From: Bugula neritina
Lineage: Eukaryota; Animalia; Bryozoa
Assembly (NCBI GenBank): GCA_964035545.1
Contig: OZ037765.1
Coordinates: 19,902,995 to 19,966,994 of the forward strand
Direction: 5' to 3'
Length of the DNA stretch: 64,000 bases
The notes beneath the pieces were generated by a model. It worked only from the letters and a program-made list of their open reading frames with translations. It was not told the origin of the DNA and ran no database searches. Shown here piece by piece: positions 34,901 through 62,402 of the stretch (positions are counted from its first letter, which is position 1; each line of letters begins with the position of its first letter). The translations under genes were made by a program, and so were the position numbers.

Positions 34901-37900
34901 AACCCAATTTTAGGTTGACAACTGTGCTAATCCTAACAAAAAGTTAATTTTGATGTAAAGTGTAATCTTTGTCAATTTATGTATTTTCATATTCTTTTAG
35001 TTGTATCAAAGTATCGCAGACTTCTCAAAAGCAAAAATATTATAGACAAGAATTGTATTCGCTGTACTTTTACTTTTCAGTAGACTACTATTTAATTTAT
35101 AGAAAGTGTGAATATTTTGTCTGTCAGGAGATAACGCAGACAGCCAGCGCCCAGGAACACGCAGCGCATTACTTGAAGTTGCTCACCCCTGTCTATGTAA
35201 ACCTGGTGCACGTTCTACTTAGGAAAGCTCAATACCCCGATGACTCTGTGTATAAATCTATGAATGGAGACGAAAAAGAAATCTTCAGGTGTTATAGACA
35301 GGATATAGCTGATACTATAGTGAGTATTTATTTGTGGCTAGTTGCGTCTTATTGGTCACTATCCATCATGATACAGCAACTTGAATGTGATAGAAAAAAG
35401 GTACTGACACTTTTGACATGCTCAAGCTCTGTGATTATTTGAGTATAACTATTATGCAGTATTCAAGTGCTTGTGTTTACAACAAAGCTTGTGTAAAGAT
35501 ACTAGGCTAAAGAGAATACAACTATCAGACATTTGTAGCAACGTAAACTATCATCAATTTGATTAAAGAGTTTTACTCAAATTTGAATGAGCAAACTGCT
35601 GCAGTAAAGTGAAAGTTTGATATATTTAGGAAATATAATAAACAGCTCTTTCTATTCTTATAGATTTCCTGTAAATATTTTCATTTTCATGTGCTAGGCA
35701 CGCTTTGACTCATATCTTTCTTTTGGTTTTTTTACAGTATTCGATGACACATATTCTTTCGCTCTCTATTTTATTGCACAATATTTGACAAGTGGTATTT
35801 TCAAAAGTTGATATTATTCTAGTATATAATAACGTAATACTGTTACAGATGTATGCCCACTGTATTTTATTTGATAACCTGGCATTGTTGCTCAAGTCAT
35901 GTGTGATGGATGTCACCTGTCGACTACCTGATGTGAGATGGCAGGAGGTGGAAAGTCTTCTCTATATACTGAGTAATGTCACTGATGTTAGCCTGTCTGA
36001 AGGTTTGTGTGTTGTGATACATGTTTGTGTAAAAATACATATAGTTAATAAGTGTCCAATTAAATGTGGGTTTATACCTTCATGATTCTCAGTCATAAAT
36101 TCAATTTAGTTGAGTTGAAAATTTCACTGAGTTGCATTGCATTGTAAAAGCCACTTGTCAAAGTTTTTGTTTTGCTATAACTTAATCGGTCGATTTCAGA
36201 ATAGTAATAAAAGGGGGATGATAAATCCTTGTAGATATCAGTGTTATCACTTTGGCGACTAGATGTAAAAGCTTCATGTTTATAATTATGTCGGCTACCT
36301 CTCTTAGTTATTGCTTTTATGCAGTCGACTAAACTAGTTCATTGCGTTTTCAAAAGGCACCAAATAGCAATTAAGTGAGTCATATTTTACTATTAGAAAG
36401 TGATGATGATGTCAATAAGTTTCAGCAAAACTACAAAGGGGTACTTCACCGAGTAAAGTTTACTGAAACTTGGTACTTTTTACTCAAAATTATTATATCT
36501 AACTAAATTCAAAATTTATTATAATTTTCTGTAGTGAACAACTCAAATTTATAATATATAATACTAATATGTTTGGGCATACTTCCCTAGAGTTGTATTT
36601 ACCCGATGGCCAAGATATCGGTGAATAATGTAATACTGAATAAATATAACATGTCAGATTCATTGTGTATCAGGCAGGGTTGGGGTAATTGTAATTTGTA
36701 ATTGTAATTTGTTTTAATTAATTACATTTTTTCAAGCAATTGAATATAATTTGTAATTGATATATAAAAATGTAATTGTAATTAATTACATATCTAAAGT
36801 AATTTGTTTTACAATTACTTTATAATTACATGTCAATTACTTCAAACATTTAAATCTTAAAAGTTTCATGCTTTTCCAACCATGCCTACTGTTAAATAAC
36901 AAGTTCAGATTAAGTCAATGTAGTATTGTATCACTGTTGAGAACAAAGTAGGTTCGCCTCTGTCAAAATTGCCCCTGGTAGTTGAACCCTAGAAGTGAGA
37001 TTGCATAACTTCTATTTATCCCTTGTGAGAACAAAAGTAATTGTAATTAATTACATTGCCATGTAATTGTAATTGTAATTAATTACATTGCCATGTAATT
37101 GTAATTAATTACACTACTTTTTAACTGTAATTATAATTGTAATTTTAATTGACAAATTTTCATGTAATTGTAATTGTAATTAATTACATTCCCATGTAAT
37201 TGACCCCAACCCTGGACTATCAGGTCACTAGTGTTCTGCTGAGTCACAGTGTCATAAGATGTAAGATGAGTGTTGATTGGTTGATTGTATATAGATGAAG
37301 AAGAGTGGGAGATCAACGAGTACTCAGACAGGTTAACCAAGACACCAGATACTAAAGAAGACATCATGCTGGTTGAGGTCATCAACCTCATCTCCAAACT
37401 CAATATGGATCATGAGATCCTTCTTATCTCGGTGCTACAAGTCATTGGTAAATCATCAGTATGTCTTGTCTCTTGTCATTGTTACTACTGTTAGTTATAT
37501 GTGAATACACTCATGTATTCCTGAATTTCTTTGACTTGATGCTTTCAGAGTTGTCTCATATTAGAAGATACTGTGTCATGTTTCCACGTGGCTAATGCAT
37601 GGCTGGTTGTATAGCTAAAGCCAGCTGGTTATACCAGTACATCACACTAGAGTTTTACTAACTAAACTTTTAGAGTTGTCCTTCCTTTTGATAAATTATT
37701 GATCACTTTATTAAGCTGGAATGCCTTTGCAGCTTGTAGAATTAGAATAACAAATATCTCTTAGCTTCAGTCTAAACACAAGGCTAGTAATGTATTCTAA
37801 GCAATGATTTTATCATTACATTTCCTGTAACCTAATGTGTTCAATTGATTTATCTGCATGGAACTTTCATGTGAGGTAATTCTGTTAAACGTACAGTTAA

Positions 37901-40900
37901 TAAAACTTTACAAACTGTCTGATATTTATTCAATTACTCACATATTGAAGTTTCGTTCTTTTACAAAGCCACTACTATTTTATGATGTTATTTTATAATT
38001 TATTGTTTTCAATTTTTACCAAATGGTTTTATAATTTTTTAGGTGCTTTTTCAGAAAAATACGAGCAGAAGCCTGAATTGTTGTCAGTTGTCTTCCCTAT
38101 TATACTCCTAAAAGGTCTCAATAGTTCCGAAACAGTCTTGTTTGCTACCTCCGCTCTCAAAGACATCTGTAAAGACAACAGCAAGTTAATAGAGCCGTAC
38201 TCGGACGACATTATCAGTGTGTGCCATCAGAAAATCTCCTCCAATACTCTCTCTGTACGTGCATGCCACTTTGCTTTTAATGTGTATATTATGTCTGTTT
38301 TAACATTAGTTCAGTGTAGATACAAGATAAAAATGTATGTGTGGTTTATATTATAAATGCTGTCGGTAACAACTAATGCCCAAATTAAAAGTCCCGTCGC
38401 ATTAGAAAGCTCCCACTATCATTTGATTTTTAATGTTTTTTTTTATGTTACTTCATGAATGCTATTGGTTATTACATAAAGCACTTTAAATGTTTATCAT
38501 TTATTAATGCTTTATTCTTGGTGTTTCTTAGAAATCTTTAAATCATAATTTTAGTCTCGAGACGCCGCCAGACTCTTTTCGTGTGTGGGCCACGTGCTAT
38601 CCACCCTACCTCAAGGCCGAATATATCAATGGCTAGAGAAGCTACTCCCTCCAATCACCTATTCGCTGCATCAGGCAGCATCCCTCAGCCCAAGTGGACC
38701 AGTAAAATTGCAGCTGATGGATAAAATACAAATGCTGACTTTTCTGTTTGACTCTCTAGACGTCTGCAAATACGAAGATAAGACATCATCCCACGAATCA
38801 CAACCGGTGTGAATTTTTTCTAGATCATTCAAAAATTTGACTGTTTTCTTTACAAACTTCCAGTTTACATTGTTCAGCTTTTGTATTTTAACTTTCATTT
38901 TCATCAGCTGTGCCAGTATTACTGGATGGCCTGTTTGTTTTAGGTTTTGGCAATCATGAAGAATATGATTCCAGTTTTGAATCTGATCCTATCTCACTGG
39001 GCTGCAGATTCAGAAATAGTTGGGGTATTACAATTTGCAACTCTTACTATAAATATTATATTCAATTTCTAAACCTGCTCATGCACAGTAGGGCTCTGTT
39101 GTTGCTTGAATATCATTACATAAATCACTACTAGTACATAGCTAAAATATTACTCAGTCAGTGTCTTTGCTTCTATATTTGCTGCCTTTTTTGTCAAGTA
39201 ACTACACACGTTTGTGTTATGAAGTAAACATATTGATAGTTTATGTTCTTAGTGTTCTATAAGCTTGAAGAAAGTATGCATGTAATTTGTTGCAGTGTAT
39301 CTTGGAGCTGATTAAAAAGTGTATACGGACACTACTTGAGGGGTTCAAGTGTCTGCTAGAAGAGGTCTGTGTTATGATAAGTAAGATTTATGAGCACCAA
39401 CAGCATCCCACTGCTATGGAGATCATCAGACAGGTGAGTGCTTGTGACATGTAGTGTATGTGACAGTTAGTGTATGTGACATGTAGTGTATGTGACATGT
39501 AGTGCATGTGACAGTTAGTGTATGTGACATGTAGTGTATGTGACATGTAGTGTATGTGACATGTAGTGTATGTGACATGTAGTGCTTGTGACATGTAGTG
39601 TATGTGACATGTAGTGCTTGTGACATGTAGTGTATGTGACATGTAGTGCTTGTGACATGTAGTGTATGTGACATGTAGTGAGTGTGACATGTTTTGTTTT
39701 GCATACTGTACGTACTTCCTATGCTTTTGTATGAGTTGCTTCAAACTCAGGAAAATTCCTTGCAAGCCTCTATCTTGACCATTGCTTTACAATTTACAAA
39801 TTTTGTGTAAACTTTGTCTAAACTTTATCAATAATTACATCTTAATTTGTTGACATCTGTTGTTGTGTCTATTTATATTGATTACTGTTCAATGTACGGA
39901 GTTGGTTTTGTAGCTCGTTTTGATTTTCATGAAAGACCCAGCTGCAGTAGAAATAGTTAAAGAGACATTCCACTTTACTGCTCGTAAGACTATTGACTCT
40001 TTGAAACAAGGTCAGTTCTTAATGTTTTGCTGTAATTTTATATATTGTTGGCTAACTACAAGTTTAGTGAAAATGCCGAGTATATGAATTCATGCCATCA
40101 ATACACAATTAGTACGTAGTTGATATTCATTTCTTACCGACGATGTGGTGGTATTCATGTAGGAACTGCTCTGTCCTAAGTTTGAAATGTCAATTCAATT
40201 TCATGAAATTGATTTCATGTTTAGCCTTAGATTCTTACTCTGCTAGAGCGTGTGCTAGATGATTATCAATATACAGTGCTCTCTCTGTAACCCACTAAGC
40301 TTTGGGTCCCAAAACCTCAATTCGTAACATAGTCGAATACCAGATTTAACTTACGGATCTGTTAAATTTGTCCATTTTGTTCCTATACACACATACATAT
40401 GCCACAAAACTGGGGTCCAAACCTATGGAATTGTGTGAGATATGGAGGAAGCACCGTATATGTTTTAATCATATTATGTAATTATAGACAGTAATTATGT
40501 TGTGTTGCACAGACACTCACAGTAAAACTGATCTACTCGAGTCATACATGAATCTCTGCGTACAAATGTCCAAGAAGTCATCCGATGTTCTTGCTGATAA
40601 AGATTTTCCATTTGAGGATGTCTTTGAGATGGGTTAGTACAATGTTGCTGTCTACTACCAAGGTTACTATATCAATTTGCTGCCGACTACTAGCTACTTG
40701 CTGTCGTCTGACATGTTGCTGCCTTTATTATTATAGCTGTGAGAGGAATCTTGCTGCCAGAATATCTAACAGTTAAGGCTTGCTGCTCATTTCTCACTGA
40801 TGTAATCACAAAGAAAGCCAAATATACTAGACTGGACGTACTTGTCCCTAATATTGCAACATTCCTATATGACTCTCTACTAAAGGTAACCTAAATGAAT

Positions 40901-43647: not shown

Positions 43648-46082
43648 TCATGACTTGAACATACTAAGCAGGCAAGCAACAGCTATAGGTAAAAACCACC
43701 GGGTAAGGGTATTGGAATTGTTGCAACCGTCTTCTTCACATACAGTCAGACAACCTCGCATGAGTATTCCCTGGTAAGTGATCTCTCTTGACCAGCCACA
43801 GTGGTCCAGTGCACCAATCTCTGCGTCTGTAGTGGGCTCTCCATTTTTGGAAGTACATCCTCTGACAAATACTGTGTGATTACCTGAGACGATACACATG
43901 AAGTATCAACTCGATACTTGGTAAATTTGGATGCACATAGAAGTGAGTTCTAAGATTACTAAGCCTATAATCGTTGTGCTCAAAGGTCTCAACAAAAAAA
44001 TATTATACTCAGTAAAGTTTAAGGATACTTACAGTTCCCACAGGGGCTATGTTATAACATGCAACTTTTCATTGCTTCCTTATTACATTTCCTGTGAAAA
44101 CTCAATATTTTTGCTCCGAACTTTTATTTTCATACACTGTGAAAATACTTGCTACTAGATTATAATTTTATTACACATATAAGTCCAGTTTCTTATAACA
44201 CTAAAACCTTAAACTGATAGTGCATTATATTCTACAGTAAGGAAATGGTATTATTGATTTGTGTGTAAACAACACTGAAAAATATTTGTTTGAATAACAA
44301 AGATAATAATAGATCAATTTGCTCTTCGTCTGACATATTCATGATGTAACTGCCATACTAATTATAGTGAAAGAAAATTTATGAAATAGTAGCCATTACT
44401 CTGCACACATTCATACACAACAAATCCGTTTTAGTCAAAGTTGTGGAGAGCTGATTAGTTCCTGGATATAATAATTCACCCAAGTATTATTTTATGCAGA
44501 CTACCCACTCAAAGTGTCTGCACAAAATACATGGTTCAACTAGCTGTTTGGAGTTATTGCAGTGTGCAATTATGATATTCTCAATTTTTTATATGAGTCG
44601 GAATTGTATTCTCTATATCCATTATAAGCTGTGATCCTAGAACTGGTACTTATTTATTTAGAAGTCCCTACAACAAAGGTTTAACCTCACTTGTATGGAT
44701 TTCTGGTTTAAGTTAGTGTCATGGTTGAAAAGCACCTCTTTCTTTTGAACACAGCTGCTGCGTTTAAGCCCTTGCATATAACTCTGCTTATGCAGGATCA
44801 GAGTGCAGCACTACAATTTTAATTTCTACTTAACTATAATAATACTCACCCTTATGTGCCTTGAACTTTATACAAGTGGAGGCTGGAAATGTGCCGCTTC
44901 GGGACTTTCTAGGCGCCATGCAGGACGACTGGTAGGCTTCGGGATAAGCATTAAACACATCTTCAAATCTCGGATCTGAACCATTAATGGACTCGCAAAC
45001 GTAGCATCCAATACCTTCAACTCCTATCAACAGTAATTACACAGGATTGCAACAGAGCAGTAATACCATATAATACAAATTAATAATTAAGCATCATGCA
45101 TTGCATAGCACACACAGTGCATGTGGGTTATACATAAATACACAAGACATTACTATGCTATTGCTATAGTCAGAGTGATATATGTCCTTTTAACCCTTTG
45201 GCTATAGTACTTATTACCTAGATAGCAGTCCTTATATGATGGCTTATACATCATAAGTTGCACCTGATACTGTTATACAGAAAGGTATACAACCACATTA
45301 GGATGACACATATCACAAATATGGTAGTAGGTCTTTGTCATTCAAACCATGGGTCAATCTTAAGTTAGAGTTGTCTCTACAGCGAGTATACGCCCGGACT
45401 ATGATATATGGAAAACTGACTATTCAAATTTGAACCAGGGCTGTTACAGATGGCAAAGTGAGGTGATAAAGAATGAACTAATTTAGGGGCTTCAGTCACA
45501 GATTTGTTTTCAGGGTTTACTTCCTAAACCTTTACCACGTTTTTCACAAGGCAGTGGAGGTTGGAATCAGTTTTCCTTCTAGATAGACTGTTTTCTAAAC
45601 TGGCGAGCTTCATTTACCCAATTAAAGAGCTGTTATCAGGCATCCATTACGCACTTTCACTTTTCTCGTATTAATTAGAAGCAGATCTGTTGAACGTATG
45701 CCTACTTCCCACAAGCAGGCTAGAAGCTGGACTTGCTTTTTTGAAATAGCACAACTTGACAGTATGAGCATATTTCTCATATCCACTCCTCTGATGTGGC
45801 TCTTATATTGCAACGCATTAGTAACAAAACTCGATCAAGTTGAAACATTCGCCAACAACAAAAATAATAAATAAGTTTAATAAGATCTGAGATTCAGCAG
45901 GATAATTACTTGCTATTTCCTGTAACCTACATGCGTTGTAAGTACTTACATGTGTTGTAAGTACTTACATGCGTTGTAAGTATCTACATGTGTTGTAAGT
46001 ACCTACCAGACATTTGTAGAAGGAGCAAAAGTACAGCTAAAAAGGCACAGACAGTGAAAGTCTTTTTCCTGCCTGAAGTCAT
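43648..46082 (-). CDS. Quiver/sleepless-like Ly6/uPAR three-finger protein with signal peptide and GPI-type tail, 161 aa
   Basis: Exons 46082-46007, 45023-44850 and 43883-43648 (phase 1/1). IGCYVCESINGSDP, FPASTCIK, VRGC, DHCG, GCLTVCEEDGCN, then a hydrophobic C-terminus. Probable 5'UTR exon ending at 46316. Confidence 0.85.
45925..46006 (-). repeat. 19-bp tandem repeat (about 4.3 copies) beginning at the donor of the Ly6 gene's first coding intron
   Basis: Minus-strand units GTA(G/A)(G/A)TACTTACAAC(A/G)CAT. Confidence 0.9.
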
Positions 46083-46773
46083 CACTAGCCGTTGTTTCAC
46101 TGTGAGTTCAGTTCCTGCTGCAACTGCTTGCTTGTATAATATCTGCGTAGGTATGCTCCTTACAGTAGTTAACAGTCAATACCCTTACAATTTCTATACT
46201 CTATGCTAAATGGATGATATTTGCATCTAATTAGGTAGTAAAAGTGAGCTAATGATATGTTTAAAATCAAGAACTTACAATATACTATAAGTTAGTTTAG
46301 AATATTGATTCTTACTCGGCTAAATTACAGCGCTGACAGGGGTGACGACGAAGATCAATAGAGAGAATCAATAGCTGTAAACTAGATGATGTCAGATCAA
46401 GGCACATAGAAAAGGACAACGGCATTGCTGGTATATTTACAACGTTTTAACATAGTGATTACAGTATATATTAGATAACAGACTTATGATATTAGCATTA
46501 TAATAATTTGAGGTAGGTGAAAAGTTACAACTTCTAACAAAATTAATGATAGTAAAACCATTTAACAGGCTTGCGAATGAAATATAACAATCACCTTCTA
46601 AATGCCAAGCTGAAAGTTATAAGCTTTTGAGTTTCATGTTAAGTAACAATATGGTCTTTTGTTGCATTCATATTTGAAAAATGATATAAATTATAACAAG
46701 TAATATTATGGAAATTGCATCAAACTTATATTAAGTATATTATGTAGTTTTAGTACGCCATATTTCCAAATAT

Positions 46774-47078
46774 TGTTATAATTTTTAGATTTAGGGTTGA
46801 TGTGCTATCCAGAGAGTCTATTTATTTACTATAGAACTGCACCAGGATAAGTCGAGTGAACGAGTATATTTTACACACAATTATACATTATAAAAACGAT
46901 ACATTATTTCCAAACAAGTTACACATCTAATCTATTTCACACTCTAGCTTCGACTGAGTTAGCAGCGGGAAACTACAATTGCTGCTAACTATCAACTACG
47001 CTAATTGGTTATCCATTGTTCCGGGTCAATTGCGCGACCCTACATGTTGTGCTGCTGGTAGTTCCACGAACCACCACA
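46774..47078 (-). repeat. 3' LTR
   Basis: Direct repeat of 53974-54278, preceded on the minus strand by the G-rich tract TGGTGGGGGCGG (47079-47090, PPT). Confidence 0.95.
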
Positions 47079-47366
47079 CCGCCCCCACCAGCAGAAAGCC
47101 ATCTTTCTGATATATATAAAAAAAAACATTCAATAGTAATTGCATACATCAGTGGACAAAAATAATACATGATATACAGGAAGAGACATAATAATAGACA
47201 GAGTCATTTTAACGATCCGTTGCATACAATTGGCCAGCTGTAGATAGACGAGGAATACTAGCTAGCTGTGGTATTAGACAAGGAATAACCTGTCTAGCAG
47301 TTAAGCATTTACACGATCTTGGTTCCTCACAAGATGTGAAGTTGCGGAGTATTCTGGGTAGCCTAA

Positions 47367-48444
47367 CTAGAGTCCTTGTTGGGCACGCCTGTGCTTGGCT
47401 TGGCATGTACGCAGTTTCCGCTTCATACGGCATACGGATCCCTTTAGCTGGAAGAGTCCTGTTGTAGTGTTAAGTAGATCTGGTGCCAGCTGGGTGAACT
47501 CTTCTTGTAATCGTAGGAGACGTTCTTCTACTGTAGCCAGGCGTACTGGGTCTGGGGACGGTGTCCGTCTGCGGCGCAAGGGTGGACTGGGGGACCTGGT
47601 TCGTCTCTTCGCCGGGGTAGGGGAGATCTCTCCTTCTTCTGGATATGTAATTTGCTCGGAGGTGTATGTAATTTGAGGACGGTCAGACACCAACGGGGAT
47701 TGTTGGCGGGCGTTGTCTAACACACGTTGGAACCCCGAGGACAGAACGGCTAATAGCATAGCCTTCTTCACCAGAGGTCGTATAAGTGTGAGGAACTCCG
47801 GGTATAGCTTAGCGTCGACCACGTAGTTTTCTCCAGGGAAACAGCCCGCCGCTCTGTGTCTGGTGACGGGGTAGGGATACACATCATTGTACCCGCAGGG
47901 GCAGAATGTTAGTAGGAGATGAGCATTGACGTGTAGTTTGAGGGAGCGGTGAGAGGCGCAATCTTCACCACAGATCTGGCATCTCGTCCGTCCTCTGGAC
48001 CCCCAGGCTGTTTCTATTTCTTCTTCTGTTTGTGGAGACACCCACCGCCAACGGCGGCGTAGTGGCTCAGGCCGGTCACCACTAGCATACTCCTCTGGAT
48101 ACGGAGCGGGAAGTGTTCTATCCCGTACCCTGGTTGTAGCGGGTCGAGTGTAATCTGAAAAAGTTTCAACAGTGTTAATACAGTACACTGCTGTGTTGTC
48201 AGCTTGAACAGCTTGGCAACTCCTAATTCAGTTACCTCGTAGAGATTTATGGTAGTGAATAGTCAGATAGAACACGTATTGCAATGAGATTATAAAAATC
48301 TCTAAGTCAAACTGAGTTCTTACTACGGTATTTCACTAACCTATCTCCAGCTCGATTGACTCAGTGAGTCAGAGCTGAGCGATGCAATCTAGTTTCGTAT
48401 TAAGATATAGTTAACTCACCCCACGATCTGTTGTCGTAAGACAT
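47367..48444 (-). CDS. Retrotransposon accessory ORF3: C2H2 zinc finger, CxC-H-C finger, Arg/Ser/Pro-rich region and coiled coil; probably spliced
   Basis: Main exon 48154-47367 after acceptor aactttttcag|. Phase-1 donors are available at 48420 (ATG 48444, MSYDNRSW) and in gag at 53900. CQIC-x12-H-x3-H present; no signal peptide or convincing TM helix. Confidence 0.8.
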
Positions 48445-48468
48445 ACTGAATGTGTGAAATGGTTTGAA

Positions 48469-51400
48469 CTACTGCTTAGAAACACGTCTACTCCTGACTG
48501 CATCAGCGAATGAAAAGATCGAGCAACGTGGTTGGGGTGCGTGATTAAGACTTTGTGCACCCGGCGGATGAATTTTGTTTCTATTTCCGCCGATGCAAAA
48601 GTTGATATTTCCGTGGTGTTGACAACTCCCACATTTGCTCGATTCTTTTCTCGTACGGTTTTCCCCTAGACTTTCATGCGTGCCGCTTTTAACGCAGTCA
48701 CATACGAAGTCCTTCAAGTATGCGGGGGGTTGCCTCGTACGCTGTCCCCTTTCTAGGGGGGGTGACACGCTTGCCGGTTCGTTAGTAGGGGCCTCTAATG
48801 GCGTCTCTACTTCACCGTCAGCGGTCACCTCTTCTTGTTCTCCGGATGGAGCCCCTCCCTCCGTGGGGGTTTGCACTTCCGGAACCGGCTCGGTTTCTGG
48901 AAGTGATGGAATTAGACTTGGCGGTGGCGAACACGCTTCTGTTGACAAAAGCTGCCGCTCCTCTCTCACCAAGTTTTCTTCCCGCGGTATGACCACTTCG
49001 TATTCAGGTCCATGCCGCCGTCGCCCGCGCGTTGTTGTTTGCCTCCTGGGCTCTAACAACGGGGGGGCTTCTCCCACTCCGCCGGGGCTAGCCCAATACG
49101 GTTTCAAGCGAGACTCATTCTGGATAGACACCTGTCCTGAGCGCTCAATCTTGTACGTATGATTGGGCATAGCCTCGACGACCACGTAGGGGCCTACGAA
49201 CTTAGGCTTCAGCTTATCAGCCTGTCCGCGGCGCCTACGGTAATTGACCATCCACACCTTATCTCCCGTTTGATAGAGAGGTGGTTCATCGGAATCTTCG
49301 TGCCGCACCTTCCACTGCTGTTGGCGCAGTATATCGTGTGCGGCCTTCATCCGTTCCACTAGTTCACTGGCATACTCGTGGACTGAGTTATCTTGCTCTG
49401 GAACGTGATAGGTGAGATGGTCAGGGACACGAGTCTCTCTCCCGAGCATCAAGAGGTTTGGGGTCTCACCAGTACTGGTGTGTGGGGTGCTACGGTATGC
49501 ACGCATGACTTGCGGCAACACCGTATCCCATTCCTCTTGACCTCGTCCAAGGAGGAGACTCCGGAGTGCATCACCTAGCATCCGGTTGTTGCGCTCCACC
49601 ACCCCGTTACCTTGAGGGTGGTAGGGGATGGTCCTGCTCTGATTTACTCCCCAGAGGCGGCAAAGGTCGCTCATCAGTTGAGACTGGAATTGAGCGCCTT
49701 GATCAGAGTGTATCTGTTCGGGGAGCCCAAAATAACAGAATACATGTTGGTCTAGTGCCCTGGCCACTGTTGGGGCTGATGCATCTGGGATAGCCAGAGC
49801 ATCCGCCCACCTAGTAAAGTGGTCGGTTAGTACTAGGATCCAATTATTGCCTCTGGGGGTCAGGGGCATGGGTCCGACCAGGTCTACAGCGACTACTTGC
49901 CAGGGCCTACCAGCGTATAGCCTCCGCCGTCCTGCTTCACCAGGGGGGCGGCTATGCTTACTGGCCTGGCAGATCTCACACTGTTTGACTCTGAGCCGGA
50001 CATCACGCTCCATTTGTGGCCAATACCACCGAAGTCGTAATTTGGACATCACTCGCTTGACCCCTGCGTGGGCCTGCTTGTGAGTATCCCAAATCAACTC
50101 ACGGCGGATGGCTGTGGGGCAGACTACCCTCTTCCTTTCTGGGTGTCTGCCGCTGGCAGCTAGAGAGATGGTTAGTAACCCATCCTGCCCGATCCGCAGC
50201 GAGTCCCAACGCTGACAGTATAGCCGGAACTCGGCGCATCCCTGTCGTATGCGTTCCTCGCTGGGTCGTCGCCCTTCCCTTTTGGCCCGGTATATGTCTG
50301 CCACGACTCCAGGCAGCTCTTCTTGGAGCTTCTTCAGCCCTCGAACATTACCGGCCAGTACAGGGTTGGCGCGGAGGTTTTGTACATCCTCCGGGGACTC
50401 ATCAACTCTTTGCCTGAGTTGACCTTGATCCCAGTCAAACGGTGCTCCGTGATGAGCCAGCGTCTCCAACTCGCATCGCGGGGGACCTCCATCCCTCCTC
50501 TCGATGTTGAGACACTGTTTGCAACCTCCGTCAGGTCGGCGACTCAACCCATCCGCATTGCTGTGTCTCTTGCCCGGTCGATGTTCGATCCGGTATGAGA
50601 ATTCAGCTAGGATTTCGAGCCACCGGGCGACCTGACTAGAGGGCTCTGCTCTCCTGCACAACCAGATCAGCGAGGCATGGTCCGTACGCAGCCGGAACTT
50701 CCTGCCATATAGGTATGGTCTGAAGTGCTTCACTGACTTGATTACTGCCAGCAGCTCCTTGCGGGTAGTGCAGTAATTTCGTTCAGCGGGTGAGAGAGAC
50801 TTGCTGTAGTAGGCTACTACTACCTCTCGGCCTTCCTGCACTTGTGACAGCACAGCGCCAACATTTTGGTCACTGGCGTCCGTGTCCAGGATGTACTCCA
50901 GAGTGAGATCTGGGTAGGCCAAGATGGGCGCCGTTAGTAGGCAGCCCTTGAGGCGGTCGAACGCTTCTTGCTCGACTGGAGTCCACTGCCACGTCACTCC
51001 CTTTGTGGTGAGCCGGTTTAACGGCTGGGCTATGCCCGCAAAGTCTGGTATGTATTGCCTGTAATACCCTACCAGCCCCAAGAAAGCCCGGAGTCCGGTC
51101 AAGTCTTGGGGGGTGACCCAGTCTTCTACTGCCCGTACCTTTTCGGGATCCGTTGCCACGCCGTTTCGACCGACAACGTGCCCCAGATACTTGACCTCCG
51201 GCTGCAATAGAGCGCACTTGGAAGGTTTGAGCTTAAGACCGGCACCTCGGAGTCTCTCGAAAACCTCCTGCAGACGACTGACATGTGTCTCGAAGTCTGG
51301 AGAGATTACGATGACATCATCGAGGTAGACCAGCAGTGTCTTCCAATGGAGTCCGCTAAGGACTTGTTCCATCAGCCTCTGGAAGGTGGCTGGGGCGGAG

Positions 51401-53040
51401 GTTAACCCGAAGGGCAGCACCTTCCACTTCCACAAACCGTCCCGTGTGATAAACGCCGCTTTCTCTTGGGCGTCGGGACTCAGAGGAACCTGCCAATAGC
51501 CGCTTAGCAAGTCTAGCGTACTGAAGTACTTGCTGCCGGCTAGGGCGTCCAATGACTCGTCAATACGAGGTAGAGGGTAGGCGTCCTGTATGGTTACGCT
51601 ATTGAGTTTGCGATAGTCCACACAGAACCGCCAACTGCCGTCTTTCTTCCGGACCAGTACGACTGGCGAGCTCCACGCGCTATGGGCGGGCTCTATCAGT
51701 CCCCGGTCCAGAAGATCCCGTACTTGTCGGCTAACCTCCTTCTCTTTCTCCGGCCCCAGCCTGTGTGTGGGCTGCCGGACAGGGACTGTCCCTGCAGTCA
51801 GCGGTATTTCGTGTCTGACAATTCCAGTCAGTCCCACGTCATGCTCTCCACTGCTGAACACATCACCGTAGTCGCGTAGTAACTTAGCCATAGCTTGGCG
51901 TTCTCTGTTACTCGCGCAGCCGCCACTGGCTGTTTCGTATAACTCCCGGAGATGTGTTGGGACTGCCCCCCGTCCCTGAATAGGGCACTGAGGGGGTGCC
52001 TCCGTCGCATCACCCAGCGACGGGCCTACGTCTCCCTCCTGAACAGAGTGAAAACGGCCCAGCATCAACCCAGCCGGGAGCTTGATAGGCTCGGTAAAGG
52101 GGTTGACACACTGCACTAAGATCTCCCCTCGCTCAGTCAGCTGATTCAGACTGCTGGCAAGTTGGATCTTTTCGTGCGCGCCTTCAACCACCCCGAGTCC
52201 AGAGATCCGGCTACTATTCACCCTGCAGTGAATGGTAGCCCGGGAGCGGCCTGGTATGATACGGTTGCGTACCACTTGCACACCTCCCACTAAAGGGCGG
52301 CCGAACTTGTCGACGCAGGCGAGTTCACGCCCGGACATCATCATTGCAGATCTGCTAAAATCTATGTGACATCCGTGCCGTTTAAGGAACGGCATCCCGA
52401 GGATAGCATCCTCCTTGAGCTGACTGACGATGAACGTCTCTTGGATCGTTTGATCACGGACTCGTCCCGTCAGCTCAATTATACCATAGAAGGGAAGGCA
52501 CGACCCGTCAGCGAGGGTGCCGTATTCCCCTTCGTATGCTTCCATCTCGCCCCTGACCCTAGTACTGAGGGTGTCGAAGAGTTGGCGGCTTAAGAGGTTT
52601 GTGGTACAGCCCGAATCAATGAGGAAAGTAACAGCTTTGCCTTCCAGTTTACTGGGCAAGAAATAGCTGTTCCCATGGGGCTGCACCTGAACTCTCCCTT
52701 CAGGCCTCACTCTCGCAGGGAGTACCTCCCTCGCTTTGGGTCGCGAAGGAGGTCTCTTAGGGCGGTGGTAGGTAGGCCTCGGGGGTGCTGAGGCTAGATT
52801 CTCAGTTACCTTTGTGGGCTCCCATCCAGATTCTTGGACTTGTAGCCCTGTGAATCTGTTGTGAAGGGGCATAGAAAAGGCAGCTGCGGGGCGAAGCCCC
52901 TTGCTGGTCCGTCGTGGCTGTTGCCACTGTTGGTTACCAGTACGCGGTACCCGTCTGGGTGACCTGCGTTTCTTCTTCCCTGGAGGTTTCATCGTCGGCC
53001 CGCGGAAGGTGGGAACATCTGCGGGCCGCGGTAGTTTAAC
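48469..53040 (-). CDS. pol: Pol polyprotein (aspartic protease, RT, RNase H, integrase), in the -1 frame relative to gag
   Basis: FLIDSG; RFCVDYRKLN, LPFGL, YLDD; LDTDAS; HHCC (THKQAH...CEIC), DDE (AVDL, HSDQG, VERNNR), GPY module; uninterrupted ORF. Confidence 0.97.
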   Translation of the reverse strand, partial: VKLPRPADVPTFRGPTMKPPGKKKRRSPRRVPRTGNQQWQQPRRTSKGLRPAAAFSMPLHNRFTGLQVQESGWEPTKVTENLASAPPRPTYHRPKRPPSRPKAREVLPARVRPEGRVQVQPHGNSYFLPSKLEGKAVTFLIDSGCTTNLLSRQLFDTLSTRVRGEMEAYEGEYGTLADGSCLPFYGIIELTGRVRDQTIQETFIVSQLKEDAILGMPFLKRHGCHIDFSRSAMMMSGRELACVDKFGRPLVGGVQVVRNRIIPGRSRATIHCRVNSSRISGLGVVEGAHEKIQLASSLNQLTERGEILVQCVNPFTEPIKLPAGLMLGRFHSVQEGDVGPSLGDATEAPPQCPIQGRGAVPTHLRELYETASGGCASNRERQAMAKLLRDYGDVFSSGEHDVGLTGIVRHEIPLTAGTVPVRQPTHRLGPEKEKEVSRQVRDLLDRGLIEPAHSAWSSPVVLVRKKDGSWRFCVDYRKLNSVTIQDAYPLPRIDESLDALAGSKYFSTLDLLSGYWQVPLSPDAQEKAAFITRDGLWKWKVLPFGLTSAPATFQRLMEQVLSGLHWKTLLVYLDDVIVISPDFETHVSRLQEVFERLRGAGLKLKPSKCALLQPEVKYLGHVVGRNGVATDPEKVRAVEDWVTPQDLTGLRAFLGLVGYYRQYIPDFAGIAQPLNRLTTKGVTWQWTPVEQEAFDRLKGCLLTAPILAYPDLTLEYILDTDASDQNVGAVLSQVQEGREVVVAYYSKSLSPAERNYCTTRKELLAVIKSVKHFRPYLYGRKFRLRTDHASLIWLCRRAEPSSQVARWLEILAEFSYRIEHRPGKRHSNADGLSRRPDGGCKQCLNIERRDGGPPRCELETLAHHGAPFDWDQGQLRQRVDESPEDVQNLRANPVLAGNVRGLKKLQEELPGVVADIYRAKREGRRPSEERIRQGCAEFRLYCQRWDSLRIGQDGLLTISLAASGRHPERKRVVCPTAIRRELIWDTHKQAHAGVKRVMSKLRLRWYWPQMERDVRLRVKQCEICQASKHSRPPGEAGRRRLYAGRPWQVVAVDLVGPMPLTPRGNNWILVLTDHFTRWADALAIPDASAPTVARALDQHVFCYFGLPEQIHSDQGAQFQSQLMSDLCRLWGVNQSRTIPYHPQGNGVVERNNRMLGDALRSLLLGRGQEEWDTVLPQVMRAYRSTPHTSTGETPNLLMLGRETRVPDHLTYHVPEQDNSVHEYASELVERMKAAHDILRQQQWKVRHEDSDEPPLYQTGDKVWMVNYRRRRGQADKLKPKFVGPYVVVEAMPNHTYKIERSGQVSIQNESRLKPYWASPGGVGEAPPLLEPRRQTTTRGRRRHGPEYEVVIPREENLVREERQLLSTEACSPPPSLIPSLPETEPVPEVQTPTEGGAPSGEQEEVTADGEVETPLEAPTNEPASVSPPLERGQRTRQPPAYLKDFVCDCVKSGTHESLGENRTRKESSKCGSCQHHGNINFCIGGNRNKIHPPGAQSLNHAPQPRCSIFSFADAVRSRRVSKQ

Positions 53041-53942
53041 CCCTGATTTAGGAAGGGACAATATCGGCGGAAATGTCCTTGATTTCCGCACTCCCAGCAA
53101 AAACTGACTGTTTCTCCCTGTGGCGGCGCCGATGGCCGCATGGGCTCAGGGGCGGTACTCACTGGGTTTTGTGGTGTCAGTGTTGCTATCAGCTTGGCTA
53201 GCATGTCCGTCAGTTGAGTGACTTTTGATGCCGTCGCCAACTGGGACACGGCAGCCGCGGCGGGGGTTTCCTCCCCTTGTCCCGCGGCCGTGTCTGCGCG
53301 GTCTATCTCCACTTGGCGGGAGCTTCCGCGACTTTTATGCATTTGATTAGCTAGGAGGTAAGCTTCCCCCTCAGTCAGAGCATCTTCAACGGTGGTGACT
53401 CCCCTAGCTAGAAACTGGTGGTGGAGACCCAGATCGTCGACAGATGCTATGAAAGCGTCGAGGGTGTACCTCTCGCGGTTGACCGGGGGCAAGTCGCTGT
53501 ACGCGATCTGTGCCAGCTTCATGACCGCGGCGGCATGCTCCCGCAGCGGGGTGCGGGGATCACGCCGCAACCTCTGCAATCGGGCCCTGGCATCTGTAGC
53601 AGAGAGGCCAAAGCGGGCCCGCAGAGAAGCAAAGATATTATCAATGTCTACACCCAGCCCATAGGGCTTGGCTTTGTCCATCAATGCCATTCTAAGCTTC
53701 AGCAAGGCCACCCTAGGGGGCCACTGAGCGACGTCCATTACGTCGCTAAACTCTTGGATAAATTGTTCCACCTCCTCTTCACCCGTGAAGGTGGGCGCCT
53801 TTAACCTGTAGCGGTCCTCAGCTAGTTCTCGCGGAACCCTTCGCTCTTCTACTACATGGTTAACAGGCATTGTCTCTACAGCATTGTCTCTATGCTCACC
53901 TTCGATTGCCGGTGGTTGAGTTCCAGCATTTTCAGTCTCCAT
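52989..53942 (-). CDS. gag: Gag (317 aa) with CCHC zinc knuckle
   Basis: ATG 12 nt after the PBS; capsid-like APTFTGEEEVEQFIQEF...LRARFG; CWECGNQGHFRRYC. Confidence 0.93.
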   Translation of the reverse strand: METENAGTQPPAIEGEHRDNAVETMPVNHVVEERRVPRELAEDRYRLKAPTFTGEEEVEQFIQEFSDVMDVAQWPPRVALLKLRMALMDKAKPYGLGVDIDNIFASLRARFGLSATDARARLQRLRRDPRTPLREHAAAVMKLAQIAYSDLPPVNRERYTLDAFIASVDDLGLHHQFLARGVTTVEDALTEGEAYLLANQMHKSRGSSRQVEIDRADTAAGQGEETPAAAAVSQLATASKVTQLTDMLAKLIATLTPQNPVSTAPEPMRPSAPPQGETVSFCWECGNQGHFRRYCPFLNQGLNYRGPQMFPPSAGRR

Positions 53943-53954
53943 CTTGGATGCACT

Positions 53955-53972
53955 ATCCCACCGCTGCCACCA
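53955..53972 (-). promoter_or_regulatory. Primer-binding site complementary to the tRNA-Leu 3' end
   Basis: TGGTGGCAGCGGTGGGAT, 1 nt from the 5' LTR; its complement ATCCCACCGCTGCCA-CCA is the 3' end of metazoan tRNA-Leu(AAG-type). Confidence 0.9.
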
Positions 53973-53973
53973 C

Positions 53974-54278
53974 TGTTATAATTTTTAGATTTAGGGTTGA
54001 TGTGCTATCCAGAGAGTCTATTTATTTACTATAGAACTGCACCAGGATAAGTCGAGTGAACGAGTATATTTTACACACAATTATACATTATAAAAACGTT
54101 ACATTATTTCCAAACAAGTTACACATCTAATCTATTTCACACTCTAGCTTCGACTGAGTTAGCAGCGGGAAACTACAATTGCTGCTAACTATCAACTACG
54201 CTAATTGGTTATCCATTGTTCCGGGTCAATTGCGCGACCCTACATGTTGTGCTGCTGGTAGTTCCACGAACCACCACA
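53974..54278 (-). repeat. 5' LTR
   Basis: Adjacent to the PBS; minus strand contains an Inr-like ACTCAGTC and an AATAAA. Confidence 0.95.
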
Positions 54279-56381
54279 ATATCCTCACATATGGAAAGAA
54301 AGGAAACAGTAAAGTAGTTTTACTTAAGCTTAATAAGCTCTTTGAAATTAGATATTAAAATACTTTGTTATAAAAATTATGGATTGTTCCAAAAAGTATT
54401 TTTTTGTGTAAAAATATGATATAGAATAAACTAATAAAGCTATCCAGTTGTTGCAGCCACTTATAAATGGCCCGAGATCTTTTATATATATATATATGTA
54501 TGTTGGTGATAAATATAGATTTTAAATATTATTTGCTGCATTCTCATTCTGATTCCTTCTAATTTCCAATCTGTCTTTTAGGGTAGCAGGTTTTTTTTCG
54601 GAAACAATATGGTTGTATTTAAACAATGCAGGCTAATACACACGAATACACTCTCACACAACACACGCACACGGACGAACACTCACACATTACTCTGGTG
54701 TTAATAGCTCAGCCGAAAGAAATGATTCTTTCAGTTTAGATTCAAACACACACGGATGCTGTGGAGCATGCACCTCAAAGCATACATTAATTAATTTTAT
54801 CAATCACATGATATCTATGTAAACTATTCTAATTGCATGGAACAGTTTTTTGCAGGGCCAAAAAATTGTATTACGCTAGTTAGAGAGAAGACAATTACTG
54901 TCTCGTAATGATTTTGACATGTAATGTGATAGCTCATGGCAACCAGCTGTAAACACCTGCTCAAATATTTTTAATAAAAGCGTAAATTTTTTTAACACGT
55001 AGACTTTAAAACCAACAAAAATGATAAGTGGTAAAAATAATTTTTTAAAAAACATCTCTGCTTTTAATATTTAATAAATCTAACAGTATTGTTGACTATA
55101 AGTATTGCAATTATTTGTTATTAAAGATGAGCTGCACAAAGTGACTAATTTGGTGTATTTTCTCTTTACACATTGTCAGCATTTACTTATCAACTAGTTT
55201 TACTCAATGTATTTAGACTTTAAAACATTTTATGGCAAACAGAAGGCTCCTCCCAGATCTGCAGCATTATGTCAATCAAAGCTTTAGTGAAACTATAAAG
55301 TATTGTAAACTATCAGCGCTTGCAATTACATTTGTGTTTTTCAATGGCACAATTTTAATTTTATAACATTTCTCATAAGACCTGGACTTTTATTTGTTCA
55401 GGAAAAAGTTCCAGAGTTTCTAAATGTTAATAATTTTCACAACATTAGTTTATGTATGTTGTATATATAAACACTTTTATTATTCTAATCTTAATTTCAT
55501 TGATTTCTATGTAATTAATGGAAACATAAGATACAGTTTATGTGAATATTATTTATTGAGCATTTAACTGATAGATGAAGTAGTGGCAACAGGTTCACAG
55601 AAAAAACAAAAGTGTGGCTAAACATAGACACAGATACTGCAATCCGGCTGCTGAAAATCACTGGTTACTGTTTTTGCAGCCAGACAACTGAAATTATATA
55701 AACCAGAACATTACAACACTTTGAATTGGGTAAAAACTAAACAGTAACTATAAAGATTGCACTCAAAAAATTATGTTGTATATTTTAAATACATCCAAGC
55801 TTGGCCATTGTTAGTTGACGCATCACATATATATATCACAGATAACATTACAACTCAACATAACGCACACGATAAGAGCGTTGCACTTCTTCTCTTGAAT
55901 ATCAGATACTACGCCACAGTGTACTGCAATATGTCTGCCCATCACTAATTATCTAGCAATGGTATTCATTCCACTGGTAGTATTTGTTCCTGCATCGACA
56001 CCTTATCTATACTGTGTTTGGTTTTATTTAGCAAGTAGTTGTCATATACCAAATGCCTTCTTCATGCAGCTTAACTTGCTCCATGTATTTAAGAAAGTTT
56101 TCTTACAGTCTGTAATAATAGAACACTACTATTATTATAAGTACGCTGTTTTACTTTTAGATATATTAACTATAGAAACAAAATTTATTAGTTTGAGATA
56201 ATTGCAGCTTTATTCAACAGTGACTATAGGGAGTATAATTCAGATAATTGTTTTATGATTGGTGACTCTTATAGCTAGGGTAACATATCATGTTACAATT
56301 ATAAAATATTTAATTTGGATTGACATTTCATTTGAACAGCATATATGAAATTATGATACCATAAATAATATGACTGCTTAC

Positions 56382-56802
56382 CTGTGTTAATATAACCGTC
56401 ATTAACTTGGTGAGCTGTGACTTTGATATGATTGAGTCATTGTATAACTTTTGTATGACATTCAACTCCTGTTCCATCTCTATTCTTTCTTCCTGTTGTA
56501 AATTATCAGAATATTTTATGAGTTTTATTATTAGTTTAAGTAGAAAATTAGTGTTCTTTACAATTTACGCTAGTAGAATAGAAAAATTAGAAAATTAGAA
56601 AAAATTCAAATCAACTTATTTAGTCATGACGTAGTGATAAACACAACATTTCACTCACTGCTGACTTATTATGTAAAACTCTCTTAATCCACATTCTCTC
56701 TCCTTTACCAAACACAGTAAATGAGTACAGAGTAGTTGAAGTGATAGACATGATGAGTGATAATATTAGTTCAGTAAATCTCTGCTCAATAAACTCTCTT
56801 GG
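56382..56802 (-). CDS. Two exons of an unidentified gene, copy 1 of a local duplication
   Basis: Exons 56802-56659 (PREFIEQRF...VLHNKSA|gtgagt) and 56492-56382 (EERIEMEQELNVIQKLYNDSIISKSQLTKLMTVILTQ|gtaagc), phase 0; may be a pseudogene. Confidence 0.4.
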
Positions 56803-56902
56803 CTGATGCAAATCAAGTTTGTGACTTTGTGTTGTGAAAGTTATGCTTTTGATTGTTGAGTGTAATGAAGTTAACAATGCATTAAAATTTGAATTTAAAA
56901 TG

Positions 56903-56904
<2 letters not shown>

Positions 56905-56960
<56 letters not shown>

Positions 56961-57589: not shown

Positions 57590-57905
57590 TATTTTAGGTA
57601 AAACTGGTGCATGTAAAAGTGGCACAGGTAATAATGGCACAAATGGAAAAGTAGGTAAAATGGCACACCGATGTTGAATTTTTTTAAACTCAAACCCCAA
57701 ACCCTTCACCCCAAGCCCCCAACCCTTGAACCCTAAACCCTCACTCCCTAACTCAAACTCCAGAACCCCAAGTGCAAACCCAAAATCCTCACTTCAAACC
57801 CCTCTTTCAAACTCCAAACCCCTACCCCAGTATTGAAAACATGTGCCATTTTTACCTACTTTTCCATTTGTGCCATTATTACCTGTGCCATTTCTACTGG
57901 ACACC
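57590..57905. mobile_element. MITE nested in the hAT element (9-bp TSD, Mutator-like)
   Basis: Long inverted arms built of GGTAA(A/T)AATGGCACA units with an AAACCC-rich core; ACCCACAAT duplicated at 57581-57589 and 57906-57914. Confidence 0.75.
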
Positions 57906-58214
57906 ACCCACAATCCATCAATGGGAGAAGATTTCAAATCACCCTTCATTGCTGAATTGTGAACCAACTCAATAAGATTTTCTTGTAACTCTTCTGAAAA
58001 CTTTTTAACAAAGCGTTGCAATGGGTCACATGTCAAGTTATTGTTAACCAACTTAATAAAGTCTTCCTGTAACTGTAACTGCAATGGGTCACATGTCAAG
58101 TTAAGAATCTAGCTCTTTCTTTTTGGGAGGTAGCTCAGAAAAATATCGTTAAAACTTCATTAAAGATTCAGAGAGATGCCTAGGAACTTTTTTGAAAAAT
58201 GATCTGGAACCGGA

Positions 58215-58422
58215 AGTGTCCGGTAAAAATGGTAGAGGTAAAAATGGCACAGGTAATAATGGCACAAATAGAAAATTAAGTAAAAATGGCACATATTTTC
58301 TAAATTAGCATTGTAGATTTGAGTTGGGGGTTAGGCGTTCAGAATGGAGGGGTTTGGGTTTGGGTTTGGGAAAATTTAACACCAGTGTGTGATTTTTATC
58401 TGTGCCATCTTTACCTAAAATC
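58215..58422. mobile_element. Second, inverted and shorter copy of the same MITE family nested in the hAT element
   Basis: Same GGTAAAAATGGCACAGGTAATAATGGCACAAAT arms and GGGTTT-rich core; TSD degenerate (ggaaccgga / ggaacaagt). Confidence 0.65.
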
Positions 58423-61400: not shown

Positions 61401-61968
61401 ATAAACCAAATGCTAGCTAGCAAAATACACTATACAAACAAATCTTGAATAAATTTATGCACAGATAATAAAATACTACAACAAATTTCAGAAAACTTAT
61501 ATAAGGTGATTGTATTCTTCTGAACGTTAAATAACGCAGCATACTCTAATATTTCTCTCTGACTAGATACATTATCTCAATGGTATTCACTTCACTATCA
61601 ACATTCATTACTGTGTTGACTGTCCATCATGTACTACATCTACCGTGTGTTGATCTCATCTTGCTTGGAGTTTTCATACCAAACACCTTTTTCATAAAGC
61701 TCAAGCCATTCTTAGTATCTGAGAAGGCTTTCTAGCAGCCTGTAAGTTTAAAATATAAACATGTTTAAAAGAGATGTTTTATCATGAAATTTTTTTTGAT
61801 ATGATACAAAACCATCATTCTGTGCCAAGTAATAATATATTATACATTAAATTATATTTATTTTATTACTTTCAACTGTTGATTGGAGAACTATAGTCAT
61901 AATATGTACATGATTTGTCGTAAATATATTTCCTAAAACTCTTTTTCAAGAAATAATGAACTATTTAC

Positions 61969-62402
61969 CTGTGTTAATATAACTGCCAGCAACTTGGTGA
62001 GCTGTGACTTTGATATGATTGAGTCATTGTATAATTTCTGTATGACATTCAACTCCTGCTCCATCTCTATTCTTTCATCCTGTTGTAAATTACCAGAATA
62101 TTTTATGAGTTTTAATATCAAGTTGAAAATAAAATCAGTATTATAATTTATAGTTCAAACTAGTAGGAAGCTCTATTTCTAAAAGCAAAAAAAATTCAAA
62201 TTTAACAATAAGGTATTATTTAGACATGACGTAGTGATAAACACAACATTTTACTCACTGCTGACTTATTTTGTAAAACTCTCTTAATCCACATTCTCTC
62301 TCCTTTACCAAACACAGTAAATGAGTACACAGTAGTTGAAGTGATAGACATGATGAGTGATAATATTAGTTTAGTAAATCTCTGCTCAATAAACTCTCTT
62401 GG
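61969..62402 (-). CDS. Two exons of an unidentified gene, copy 2 of a local duplication
   Basis: Exons 62402-62259 and 62079-61969 (DERIEMEQELNVIQKLYNDSIISKSQLTKLLAVILTQ|gtaaat). Further candidate upstream exons at about 62936-62831 and 63085-63061. Confidence 0.45.

Follow-up and report, generated by a model that had tools for sequence, protein, structure and literature searches.

A conserved non-Env third gene, apparently spliced to the start of gag, in a young Ty3/gypsy element of Bugula neritina

What is encoded by the open reading frame that a Ty3/gypsy element of the bryozoan Bugula neritina carries between pol and its 3′ LTR, if it is not an Env protein? We examined this frame (ORF3) in a window of 64,000 nucleotides (contig OZ037765.1, positions 19,902,995 to 19,966,994), and all coordinates below are those of the window. 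The sequence-only reading of the locus had described ORF3 as an accessory gene for a zinc-finger protein, spliced either from a donor in gag or from a micro-exon of its own, and had proposed a nuclear regulator as the product. Not every third ORF that occupies the env slot of a gypsy element codes for Env, and the nuclear exit of unspliced RNA together with self-encoded regulators is known for very few LTR retrotransposons.

The window contains a young, intact Ty3/gypsy element of 7.5 kb on the minus strand, which carries the third ORF. The parts of the element other than ORF3 are as follows.

53974–54278, minus strand: 5′ LTR, 305 nt, TG...CA, with a target-site copy ATAT in front
53955–53973, minus strand: primer-binding site (PBS), TGGTGGCAGCGGTGGGAT
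52989–53942, minus strand: gag, 317 aa, with a weak CCHC knuckle
52990–53040, minus strand: −1 frameshift site G_TTA_AAC followed by a GC-rich stem in the gag/pol overlap, predicted from the sequence (folding z −3.6 and −5.2 in two windows)
48469–53145, minus strand: pol, with protease, RT, RNase H, integrase and an SH3-like tail, open for 1558 codons
47079–47100, minus strand: purine-rich tract (PPT) upstream of the 3′ LTR, assigned from the sequence
46774–47078, minus strand: 3′ LTR, 305 nt, with a target-site copy ATAT behind

The two LTRs have one mismatch over 305 nt and ATAT stands on both flanks, which indicates a very recent insertion. Both gag and pol are intact, and the frameshift site with its stem likely joins them. 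As expected of Ty3/gypsy, the element has LTRs with TG...CA ends, a target-site duplication, a PBS, which we take to match the 3′ end of tRNA-Leu, a PPT and the pol order protease-RT-RNase H-integrase. Among solved structures the RT comes nearest to Ty3 (E 2e-39 to 3e-40); the E values of the same RT were 1e-17 to 1e-18 against foamy virus and 1e-8 to 1e-10 against HIV. Rfam gave no match within 46500–54500. In read set X2 every bin of the element was covered, with summed depths much higher than in the flanks, depth not being equivalent to copy number. The pol frame extends about 70 codons beyond the usual integrase end motif, and the RNA of this tail (48640–48521, minus strand) has a folding z of −4.0.

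The host is an intron-rich animal. A host gene at 43648–46082 (minus strand, three coding exons) encodes a small secreted Cys-rich protein, probably GPI-anchored, that is Ly6/quiver-like by eye (the DUF7622 match is weak, E 0.006). About 700 nt separate the 3′ LTR from the start of this gene, which lies downstream in the same orientation, so that the young insertion could affect its expression. Exon-like stretches at 34966–38356 (plus strand) resemble, by eye, a transportin/importin-13-type host gene. A dispersed repeat is found in two copies, 89–93% alike, at 56373–56915 and 61960–62515, and a small element at 57597–58325 has repeats of both direct and inverted type.

The ORF at 48227–47367 (minus strand) is open from stop to stop over 286 codons, and the part downstream of the predicted acceptor is the following exon.

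47367–48154, minus strand: ORF3 exon, 261 codons past the acceptor; 276 aa including the Gag leader

The intact frame of about 270 aa that had been noticed between pol and the 3′ LTR is thus present. It has no ATG near its start, again as noticed, the first in-frame Met being residue 132 of 261. A homolog search, proposed in the sequence-only reading as a check, returned 72 homologs out of 1444 candidates at 44–98% identity, and a profile search returned 115. All of these relatives are unnamed, and no Pfam domain is assigned to any of the 72, 14 of which span at least 95% of the query at 46–55% identity. The chance that an unselected frame would stay stop-free at 53% identity is about 0.001 by an analytic estimate, which is a lower-grade test than dN/dS because protein databases hold only open frames and the homologs are related. 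No confirmed related locus was found in the viral, metagenome and genome contig collections searched. The comparisons support ORF3 as a genuine third gene that is conserved in a gypsy lineage.

In regard to the expression of ORF3, the sites concerned are the acceptor aactttttcag/ (exon start 48154), the gag donor AAG/GTGAGC (last exon base 53900) and a second donor GG/GTGAGT (last exon base 48420), where the slash marks the junction and all three are on the minus strand. Their positions and sequences agree with the sequence-only reading, and so do the phases; both donor exons are phase 1 and compatible with the ORF3 frame. The donors (53899 and 48419) rank first and second among the 434 sense-strand GT sites of the element under an approximate donor matrix, and the acceptor at 48154 falls outside the top 15 of 277 YAG sites by a crude pyrimidine score. 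The gag donor defines the following leader.

53900–53942, minus strand: start of gag, putative exon 1 of ORF3, 14 codons plus one base up to the best-scoring donor

E-G-E or K-G-E is found at the donor position in 50 of 64 Gag N-termini. The ORF3 homolog P0025 starts MAEEGTELPIPRNEDHTRL and the Gag homolog P0127 starts MAEEGTELPIPRNEGEKDN; residues 1–14 of the two proteins are identical at 14 of 14 positions (E 7e-9), and none of the other members among the 206 family sequences gave an N-terminal match to Gag. The Gag part of P0025 is followed by D-H-T-R, the family start, in which D is the residue where ORF3 conservation begins. The break in P0025 therefore matches both the donor place in the window (14 codons plus one base) and the predicted acceptor residue. 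The family start is visible in 24 of 86 close-family sequences, and all of these except P0025 (23 of 24) have (F/L)(S/L)(D/G) there. As a reading of a pyrimidine-rich YAG, this motif supports a conserved acceptor position. P0025 comes from a single contig of 5320 nt; a spliced copy would measure 1760 nt, and the larger contig size suggests that P0025 is probably a reverse-transcribed spliced RNA within genomic DNA. The family proteins P0048 and P0072 look like ordinary deletion fusions. In RNA run X1, which contains a small share of the sequence words, the predicted junction was absent among the 15 of 53 joints listed, and the acceptor was uncovered; the run gave 22 contigs, one within ORF3 (47788–48006) and none spanning the acceptor, which is neutral on transcription. 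On the strength of the natural join in P0025 and the conserved acceptor position, which uphold the gag-donor route proposed earlier, we strongly infer that default splicing 53900>48154 yields a 276-aa protein. Taken jointly, the gene, its conservation, the donor and acceptor sequences, their phase and this splicing to a 276-aa protein are very probably correct.

The second donor would close a micro-exon upstream of the 3′ end of the intron.

48420–48445, minus strand: candidate micro-exon, ATG at 48444, donor GG/GTGAGT
48155–48468, minus strand: AT-rich non-coding spacer, 3′ end of the intron, 314 nt, partly alignable with relatives

Translation from its own ATG puts the micro-exon in the ORF3 frame; as a middle exon behind that of gag, it would shift the frame and a stop would follow after 46 codons. 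The small intron has the claimed length of 265 nt and is AT-rich (37.7% GC; ORF3, 54.7% GC). P0027, which is 47% identical, continues across the spacer; its first residues, V-S, lie 88 codons and one further base (265 nt) upstream of the acceptor residue, a distance equal to that of the GTGAGT of the window from its acceptor. The leader parts of P0027 and P0030 align to the spacer (9/13, E 0.97; 64 columns, E 0.007). The V-S at 265 nt and the alignable spacer indicate that the second donor is probably conserved in a relative. The micro-exon proposed earlier thus keeps its donor, apparently conserved in P0027, but remains a candidate itself, and no protein led by it was found among the sequences examined. 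At about 48378–48349 (minus strand) the spacer contains an inverted pair TGACTCA/TGAGTCA inside a hairpin, in a stretch that aligns with P0027; we take the pair to be two AP-1-like sites or else an RNA stem.

The RNA around the acceptor is predicted to be structured, as listed here.

48101–48245, minus strand: predicted multi-branch stem, in which the acceptor UUCAG/A is paired with sequence about 75 nt upstream (z −4.0; 0 of 200 shuffles)

The spacer at 48155–48468 folds more stably than 100 of 100 shuffles (z −3.4). The mean folding z of the long intron (29 windows) was −2.3, in comparison with −0.2 for 6 exon-2 windows (p 0.0006) and −0.3 for 20 host windows (p 1e-5). Since strong folding extends across the whole long intron, the spacer is not unique. 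Against synonymous-codon shuffles, the z values were −3.1 for gag, −2.1 for pol and −0.5 for ORF3 (26 vs 4 windows, p 0.018). The gag-pol RNA (53900–48155) beats both dinucleotide and synonymous-codon shuffles, whereas ORF3 and the 3′ end mostly do not. The antisense strand of the intron folds about as strongly.

The protein product consists of three parts.

47703–48062, minus strand: folded 120-aa domain, with a Trp-helix, a C2H2 finger, a 5-residue hydrophobic linker, a C-x-C...H...C/H finger and three helices
47553–47612 (approximate), minus strand: Arg-rich Ser/Thr-Pro tract KRRTRSPSPPLRRRRTPSP, the basic part of which is variable
47370–47540, minus strand: C-terminal coiled coil, about six heptads, with hydrophobic a/d positions and a basic end

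The canonical C2H2 finger and the atypical second finger that had been read from the sequence are both present, with the patterns C-x2-C-x12-H-x3-H and C-x-C-x12-H-x4-C, and Pfam detects them weakly (zf-C2H2, E 0.14). Structure prediction, also proposed in the sequence-only reading, gave a confident soluble zinc-finger fold for the domain (residues 31–150; pLDDT 96, pTM 0.87) when the model was built with 40 diverse sequences; a full-length model based on close homologs scored poorly (pLDDT 52). Finger 1 combines its C2H2 spacing with a beta-beta-alpha fold. In the alignment of 40 diverse sequences, C31, H44, H48, C54 and C56 are invariant, H69 is nearly so, and the finger-linker spacing does not vary. 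Among 118 sequences with finger 1 and C-x-C, the last ligand of finger 2 is C in 89, H in 13 and unmatched in 16. The 5-residue hydrophobic linker is found in the 101 of 207 sequences that fit a strict pattern, which itself demanded that linker. Canonical C2H2 arrays have a 7-residue linker of the TGEKP type, in place of which these sequences carry the shorter one. In each of the 45 close relatives that fit the strict pattern, finger 2 carries P at +1 and Y at +2, and its recognition positions read Y/F-P-Y-P, unlike a base-reading helix. In 56 distant relatives these positions are R+1 (71%), D+2 (67%) and R/K+6 (67%), which fits DNA binding.

In the fold search only the two-finger part gave matches (Z ≤3.8, rmsd 2.4–3.0 Å over 50–57 residues), and the neighbours are DNA-bound fingers of Kaiso, SALL4, ZBTB38 and CTCF (Z 3.3–3.8). 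The family profile matches HIC2 and SALL fingers (E 1e-6 to 1e-3), finger 1 being the one matched by profile. No whole-domain match was found in PDB or BFVD (best Z 3.8 among 48,161 chains; no Foldseek E <0.49), and the ESM Atlas returned nothing beyond clusters that are unnamed or generically zinc-finger; the absence of a whole-domain match is not proof of a new fold.

The domain is connected to the coiled coil by a Pro-rich linker. The basic SP-rich tract described earlier (KRRTRSPSPPLRRRRTPSP) is present in this copy but is not constant in the family: a basic stretch stands at its position in 10 of the 81 family sequences carrying the coiled-coil start, and an S/T-P site in 59 of 81 close sequences. 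Among 44 longer distant sequences, a count that includes cluster duplicates, 20 have a run of eight residues somewhere behind the domain with at least five basic ones. The C-terminal coiled coil holds up, with hydrophobic a/d heptads modelled as one helix (residues 208–258 of the full-length model). The highest 19-residue hydropathy is 1.51, in a helix holding two lysines, and no signal peptide or membrane-spanning stretch was detected by hydropathy. Values above 1.6 occur in 8 of 52 close homologs, in seven of them from an internal lysine-bearing helix and in one from a read-through tail. No Env family, including F-type or gB-type fusion proteins, was among the matches listed in the Pfam scan or the fold search. 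These results agree with the earlier description of a non-Env protein that lacks a signal peptide and a TM segment.

The same domain is found in other contexts, and in two distant elements it comes after integrase. P0319 (1460 aa) has an RNase H and integrase 49% identical to those of the window's pol, and the same frame continues into the domain, then a basic tract and finally a helical end. In P0225 an integrase tail lies about 40 residues before the domain; between the two stands F-F-L-F-T-E, which by eye could be another acceptor. No long fused forms (971–2770 aa) were found among 7982 candidates, a weak result, as P0319 surfaced by another route. Named members of the family come from two bryozoans, Watersipora subatra and Bugula neritina, and are gene models that lack characterisation; such a member was present in 5 of the 20 distant-protein clusters looked up. 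The bryozoan models P0267, P0315, P0316, P0314 and P0323 contain the domain once or twice. The Bugula model P0323 has the same order of an acidic start, the domain, a Ser/Pro linker and a coiled coil, as do Watersipora models. P0315 and P0316 carry consecutive locus tags in Bugula and have, by eye, an N-terminal stretch in common with Watersipora P0267, a sharing that looks as expected of orthologous host genes. In the domain tree, element-linked and bryozoan rows each lie on both sides of the midpoint, and no direction of transfer can be read; 21 of 51 inner branches are open, and three chosen proteins without the pattern were skipped. The occurrence of the domain in both elements and bryozoan gene models may record traffic of genes between element and host.

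What would such a protein do for the element? We tentatively favor the reading, to which we give somewhat less than an even chance, that ORF3 is a conserved accessory gene whose spliced product acts as a Rev/CERV-like nuclear switch on the element's own RNA. In this scheme, splicing would connect the first 14 codons of gag with the ORF3 exon, and translation of the resulting RNA would give the 276-aa protein. The acceptor would be held in the predicted stem and the retained intron would be structured, so that splicing would be incomplete and adjustable. The ORF3 protein would enter the nucleus and self-associate via its coiled coil, and the finger domain and basic tracts would bind the intron-containing genomic RNA. 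Unspliced RNA would thereby escape for Gag-Pol synthesis and packaging, and Ser/Thr-Pro phosphorylation might gate the protein. Action on RNA is favored because the splice exists only to make the ORF3 protein and the retained intron is structured, because the acceptor is predicted to be masked and the fingers are packed and non-canonical in the window's subfamily, and because CERV shows that a gypsy element can work in this way (PMC10309623). Several findings point against this RNA switch. All of the best fold neighbours are DNA-bound C2H2 arrays, and the Arg-rich tract, the most Rev-like feature, is absent from most close relatives. In finger 2 the distant relatives keep residues that suit DNA binding, and the predicted junction is absent from the RNA joints listed. 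P0025 is a single protein from a single contig, beside family members that look like plain deletion fusions, and the P0319 domain in one frame with integrase is not predicted by a Rev-like scheme. The folding of the intron, about equal on the antisense strand, could also serve packaging or host export factors without ORF3.

Those DNA-bound neighbours bear on another reading, possible although rather unlikely in our judgment, in which the spliced product, dimeric through the coiled coil, would bind DNA and serve the LTR of its own element as trans-activator or anti-silencing factor; foamy-virus Tas and plant VANC proteins provide working models. The tandem C2H2-like part superposes on Kaiso, SALL4, ZBTB38 and CTCF fingers, and HIC2/SALL profile matches, R+1/D+2/R+6 and, by eye, acidic-hydrophobic N-terminal stretches in distant members point the same way, as does the sometimes doubled domain in bryozoan gene models. 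However, the fold matches are weak and PDB is rich in DNA-bound fingers, the linker has 5 residues instead of the canonical 7, and the recognition positions of the window's subfamily carry Y/F-P-Y-P. The arrangement in P0319, where the domain shares a frame with RNase H and integrase, and in P0225, where it follows about 40 residues past the integrase tail, would suit a chromatin or DNA tether that steers integration, for which the chromodomain at the end of chromovirus integrases is an analogue. We consider this role quite unlikely, since pol in the window stops 314 nt before the acceptor and the protein would need another route into the particle, which 14 Gag residues would hardly supply; the in-frame cases may simply be copies without the stop. 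The occurrence of the same domain and order in Bugula P0323 and Watersipora models is what a captured host-type zinc-finger factor would show, acting as a decoy or dominant negative on host genes or defence and not on element nucleic acid. This origin and role also appear unlikely, as the domain tree gives no direction and has many open forks.

Two further alternatives concern the gene itself. ORF3 could be expressed mainly from the micro-exon ATG, through an internal promoter or re-initiation after pol, with P0025 a chance deletion. The micro-exon ends at the second-best donor of the element, and the relative at 47% identity has its V-S exactly 265 nt before the acceptor, within an alignable spacer; but no protein with such a leader is present among the sequences examined, and the break in P0025 coincides precisely with the best donor and the acceptor. 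We consider this route very improbable as the main one, and both routes may be used. That ORF3 is an Env remnant or an unselected open frame is barely credible. Its env-like position and splice geometry do recall the idefix-type env (bioRxiv 10.1101/2023.08.03.551782), but it has no TM stretch, signal peptide or Env family match, its zinc ligands are invariant in 40 diverse sequences and its predicted fold is confident and soluble.

The features of the nuclear RNA switch, which we prefer among these readings, can be compared with known systems. Matches to a characterised accessory protein or env fragment were looked for by Pfam and fold searches, and none was found. The ORF3 family has no description in the literature searched (few subscription papers), in Pfam or in the fold databases; Repbase, Dfam and GyDB lie outside this search and may hold it. 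The available text of PMC13524379, PMC8220671, PMC2774666 and PMC6338049 does not describe such a gene. The LTR elements of bdelloid rotifers, as presented in the main text of PMC5408684, have non-env ORF3s of GDSL, DEDDy, CC and TM types. These are likewise family-specific third ORFs of invertebrate gypsy-like elements, some with coiled coils, but they are enzymes, membrane or coiled-coil proteins, and the word 'finger' is absent from that main text. The env-F genes of the errantivirus idefix subclade lie behind pol and are spliced to a short Gag peptide (bioRxiv 10.1101/2023.08.03.551782). ORF3 is similar in its position and putative splice, and differs in being a zinc-finger protein without a signal or TM stretch, whereas env-F has a signal peptide, a furin site, a fusion peptide and a TM anchor.

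The finger pairs of Kaiso, SALL4, ZBTB38 and HIC2 are similar over about 50–57 residues, which superpose at 2.4–3.0 Å, finger 1 also by profile. ORF3 differs from them in its short hydrophobic linker, its C-x-C finger 2 ending in C or H, and its extra packed helices. To our knowledge, HIV Rev has no zinc fingers, and no sequence or fold link between Rev and ORF3 was found. The likeness to Rev is one of possible logic only, comprising a spliced product, an Arg-rich tract, self-association and structured intron RNA (cf. PMC10309623).

CERV of Cer1, a Ty3/gypsy element of C. elegans, also comes close in description. According to PMC10309623, CERV (517 aa, five exons) shares exons with gag, is nuclear and is needed for export of the genomic RNA; it has H, M and G domains, a Cys finger (possibly C4), a zipper and a candidate NLS, and requires phosphorylation by a presumed proline-directed kinase. 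ORF3 resembles it, on that description, in its likely spliced mRNA with a Gag-shared N-terminus, and in its Cys-rich finger, zipper, basic NLS-like tract and Pro-directed phospho-site, and both elements keep working splice sites yet must export unspliced RNA. ORF3 differs in its 276 aa, two exons, location 3′ of pol and pair of C2H2 and C2HC fingers, and neither CERV nor Rev was among the matches listed in the fold and profile searches with ORF3. Function has been demonstrated for CERV, whereas ORF3 is known here from sequence and a model.

Non-env third ORFs, Gag-led spliced env and a spliced nuclear regulator are thus already known in gypsy elements (PMC5408684, bioRxiv 10.1101/2023.08.03.551782 and PMC10309623). 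The earlier view of a 'complex' gypsy element stands as to a real non-Env accessory gene with a likely splice, but not as a new concept. This copy is intact and very young, its splice is defined, and it offers a small, well-folded, unnamed domain together with a candidate RNA target, so that reporters can put the question to the test. It is conceivable, if doubtful, that an old and wide invertebrate gypsy lineage swapped Env for its own Rev-like circuit. This circuit would comprise an undescribed packed double-zinc-finger domain, a Gag-led spliced regulator, a structured intron, a stem-locked acceptor and a conserved micro-exon as a frame switch, the domain having moved between elements and bryozoan genomes. 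If true, 'complex retrovirus' regulation would have arisen a second time, independently of CERV, among LTR retrotransposons.
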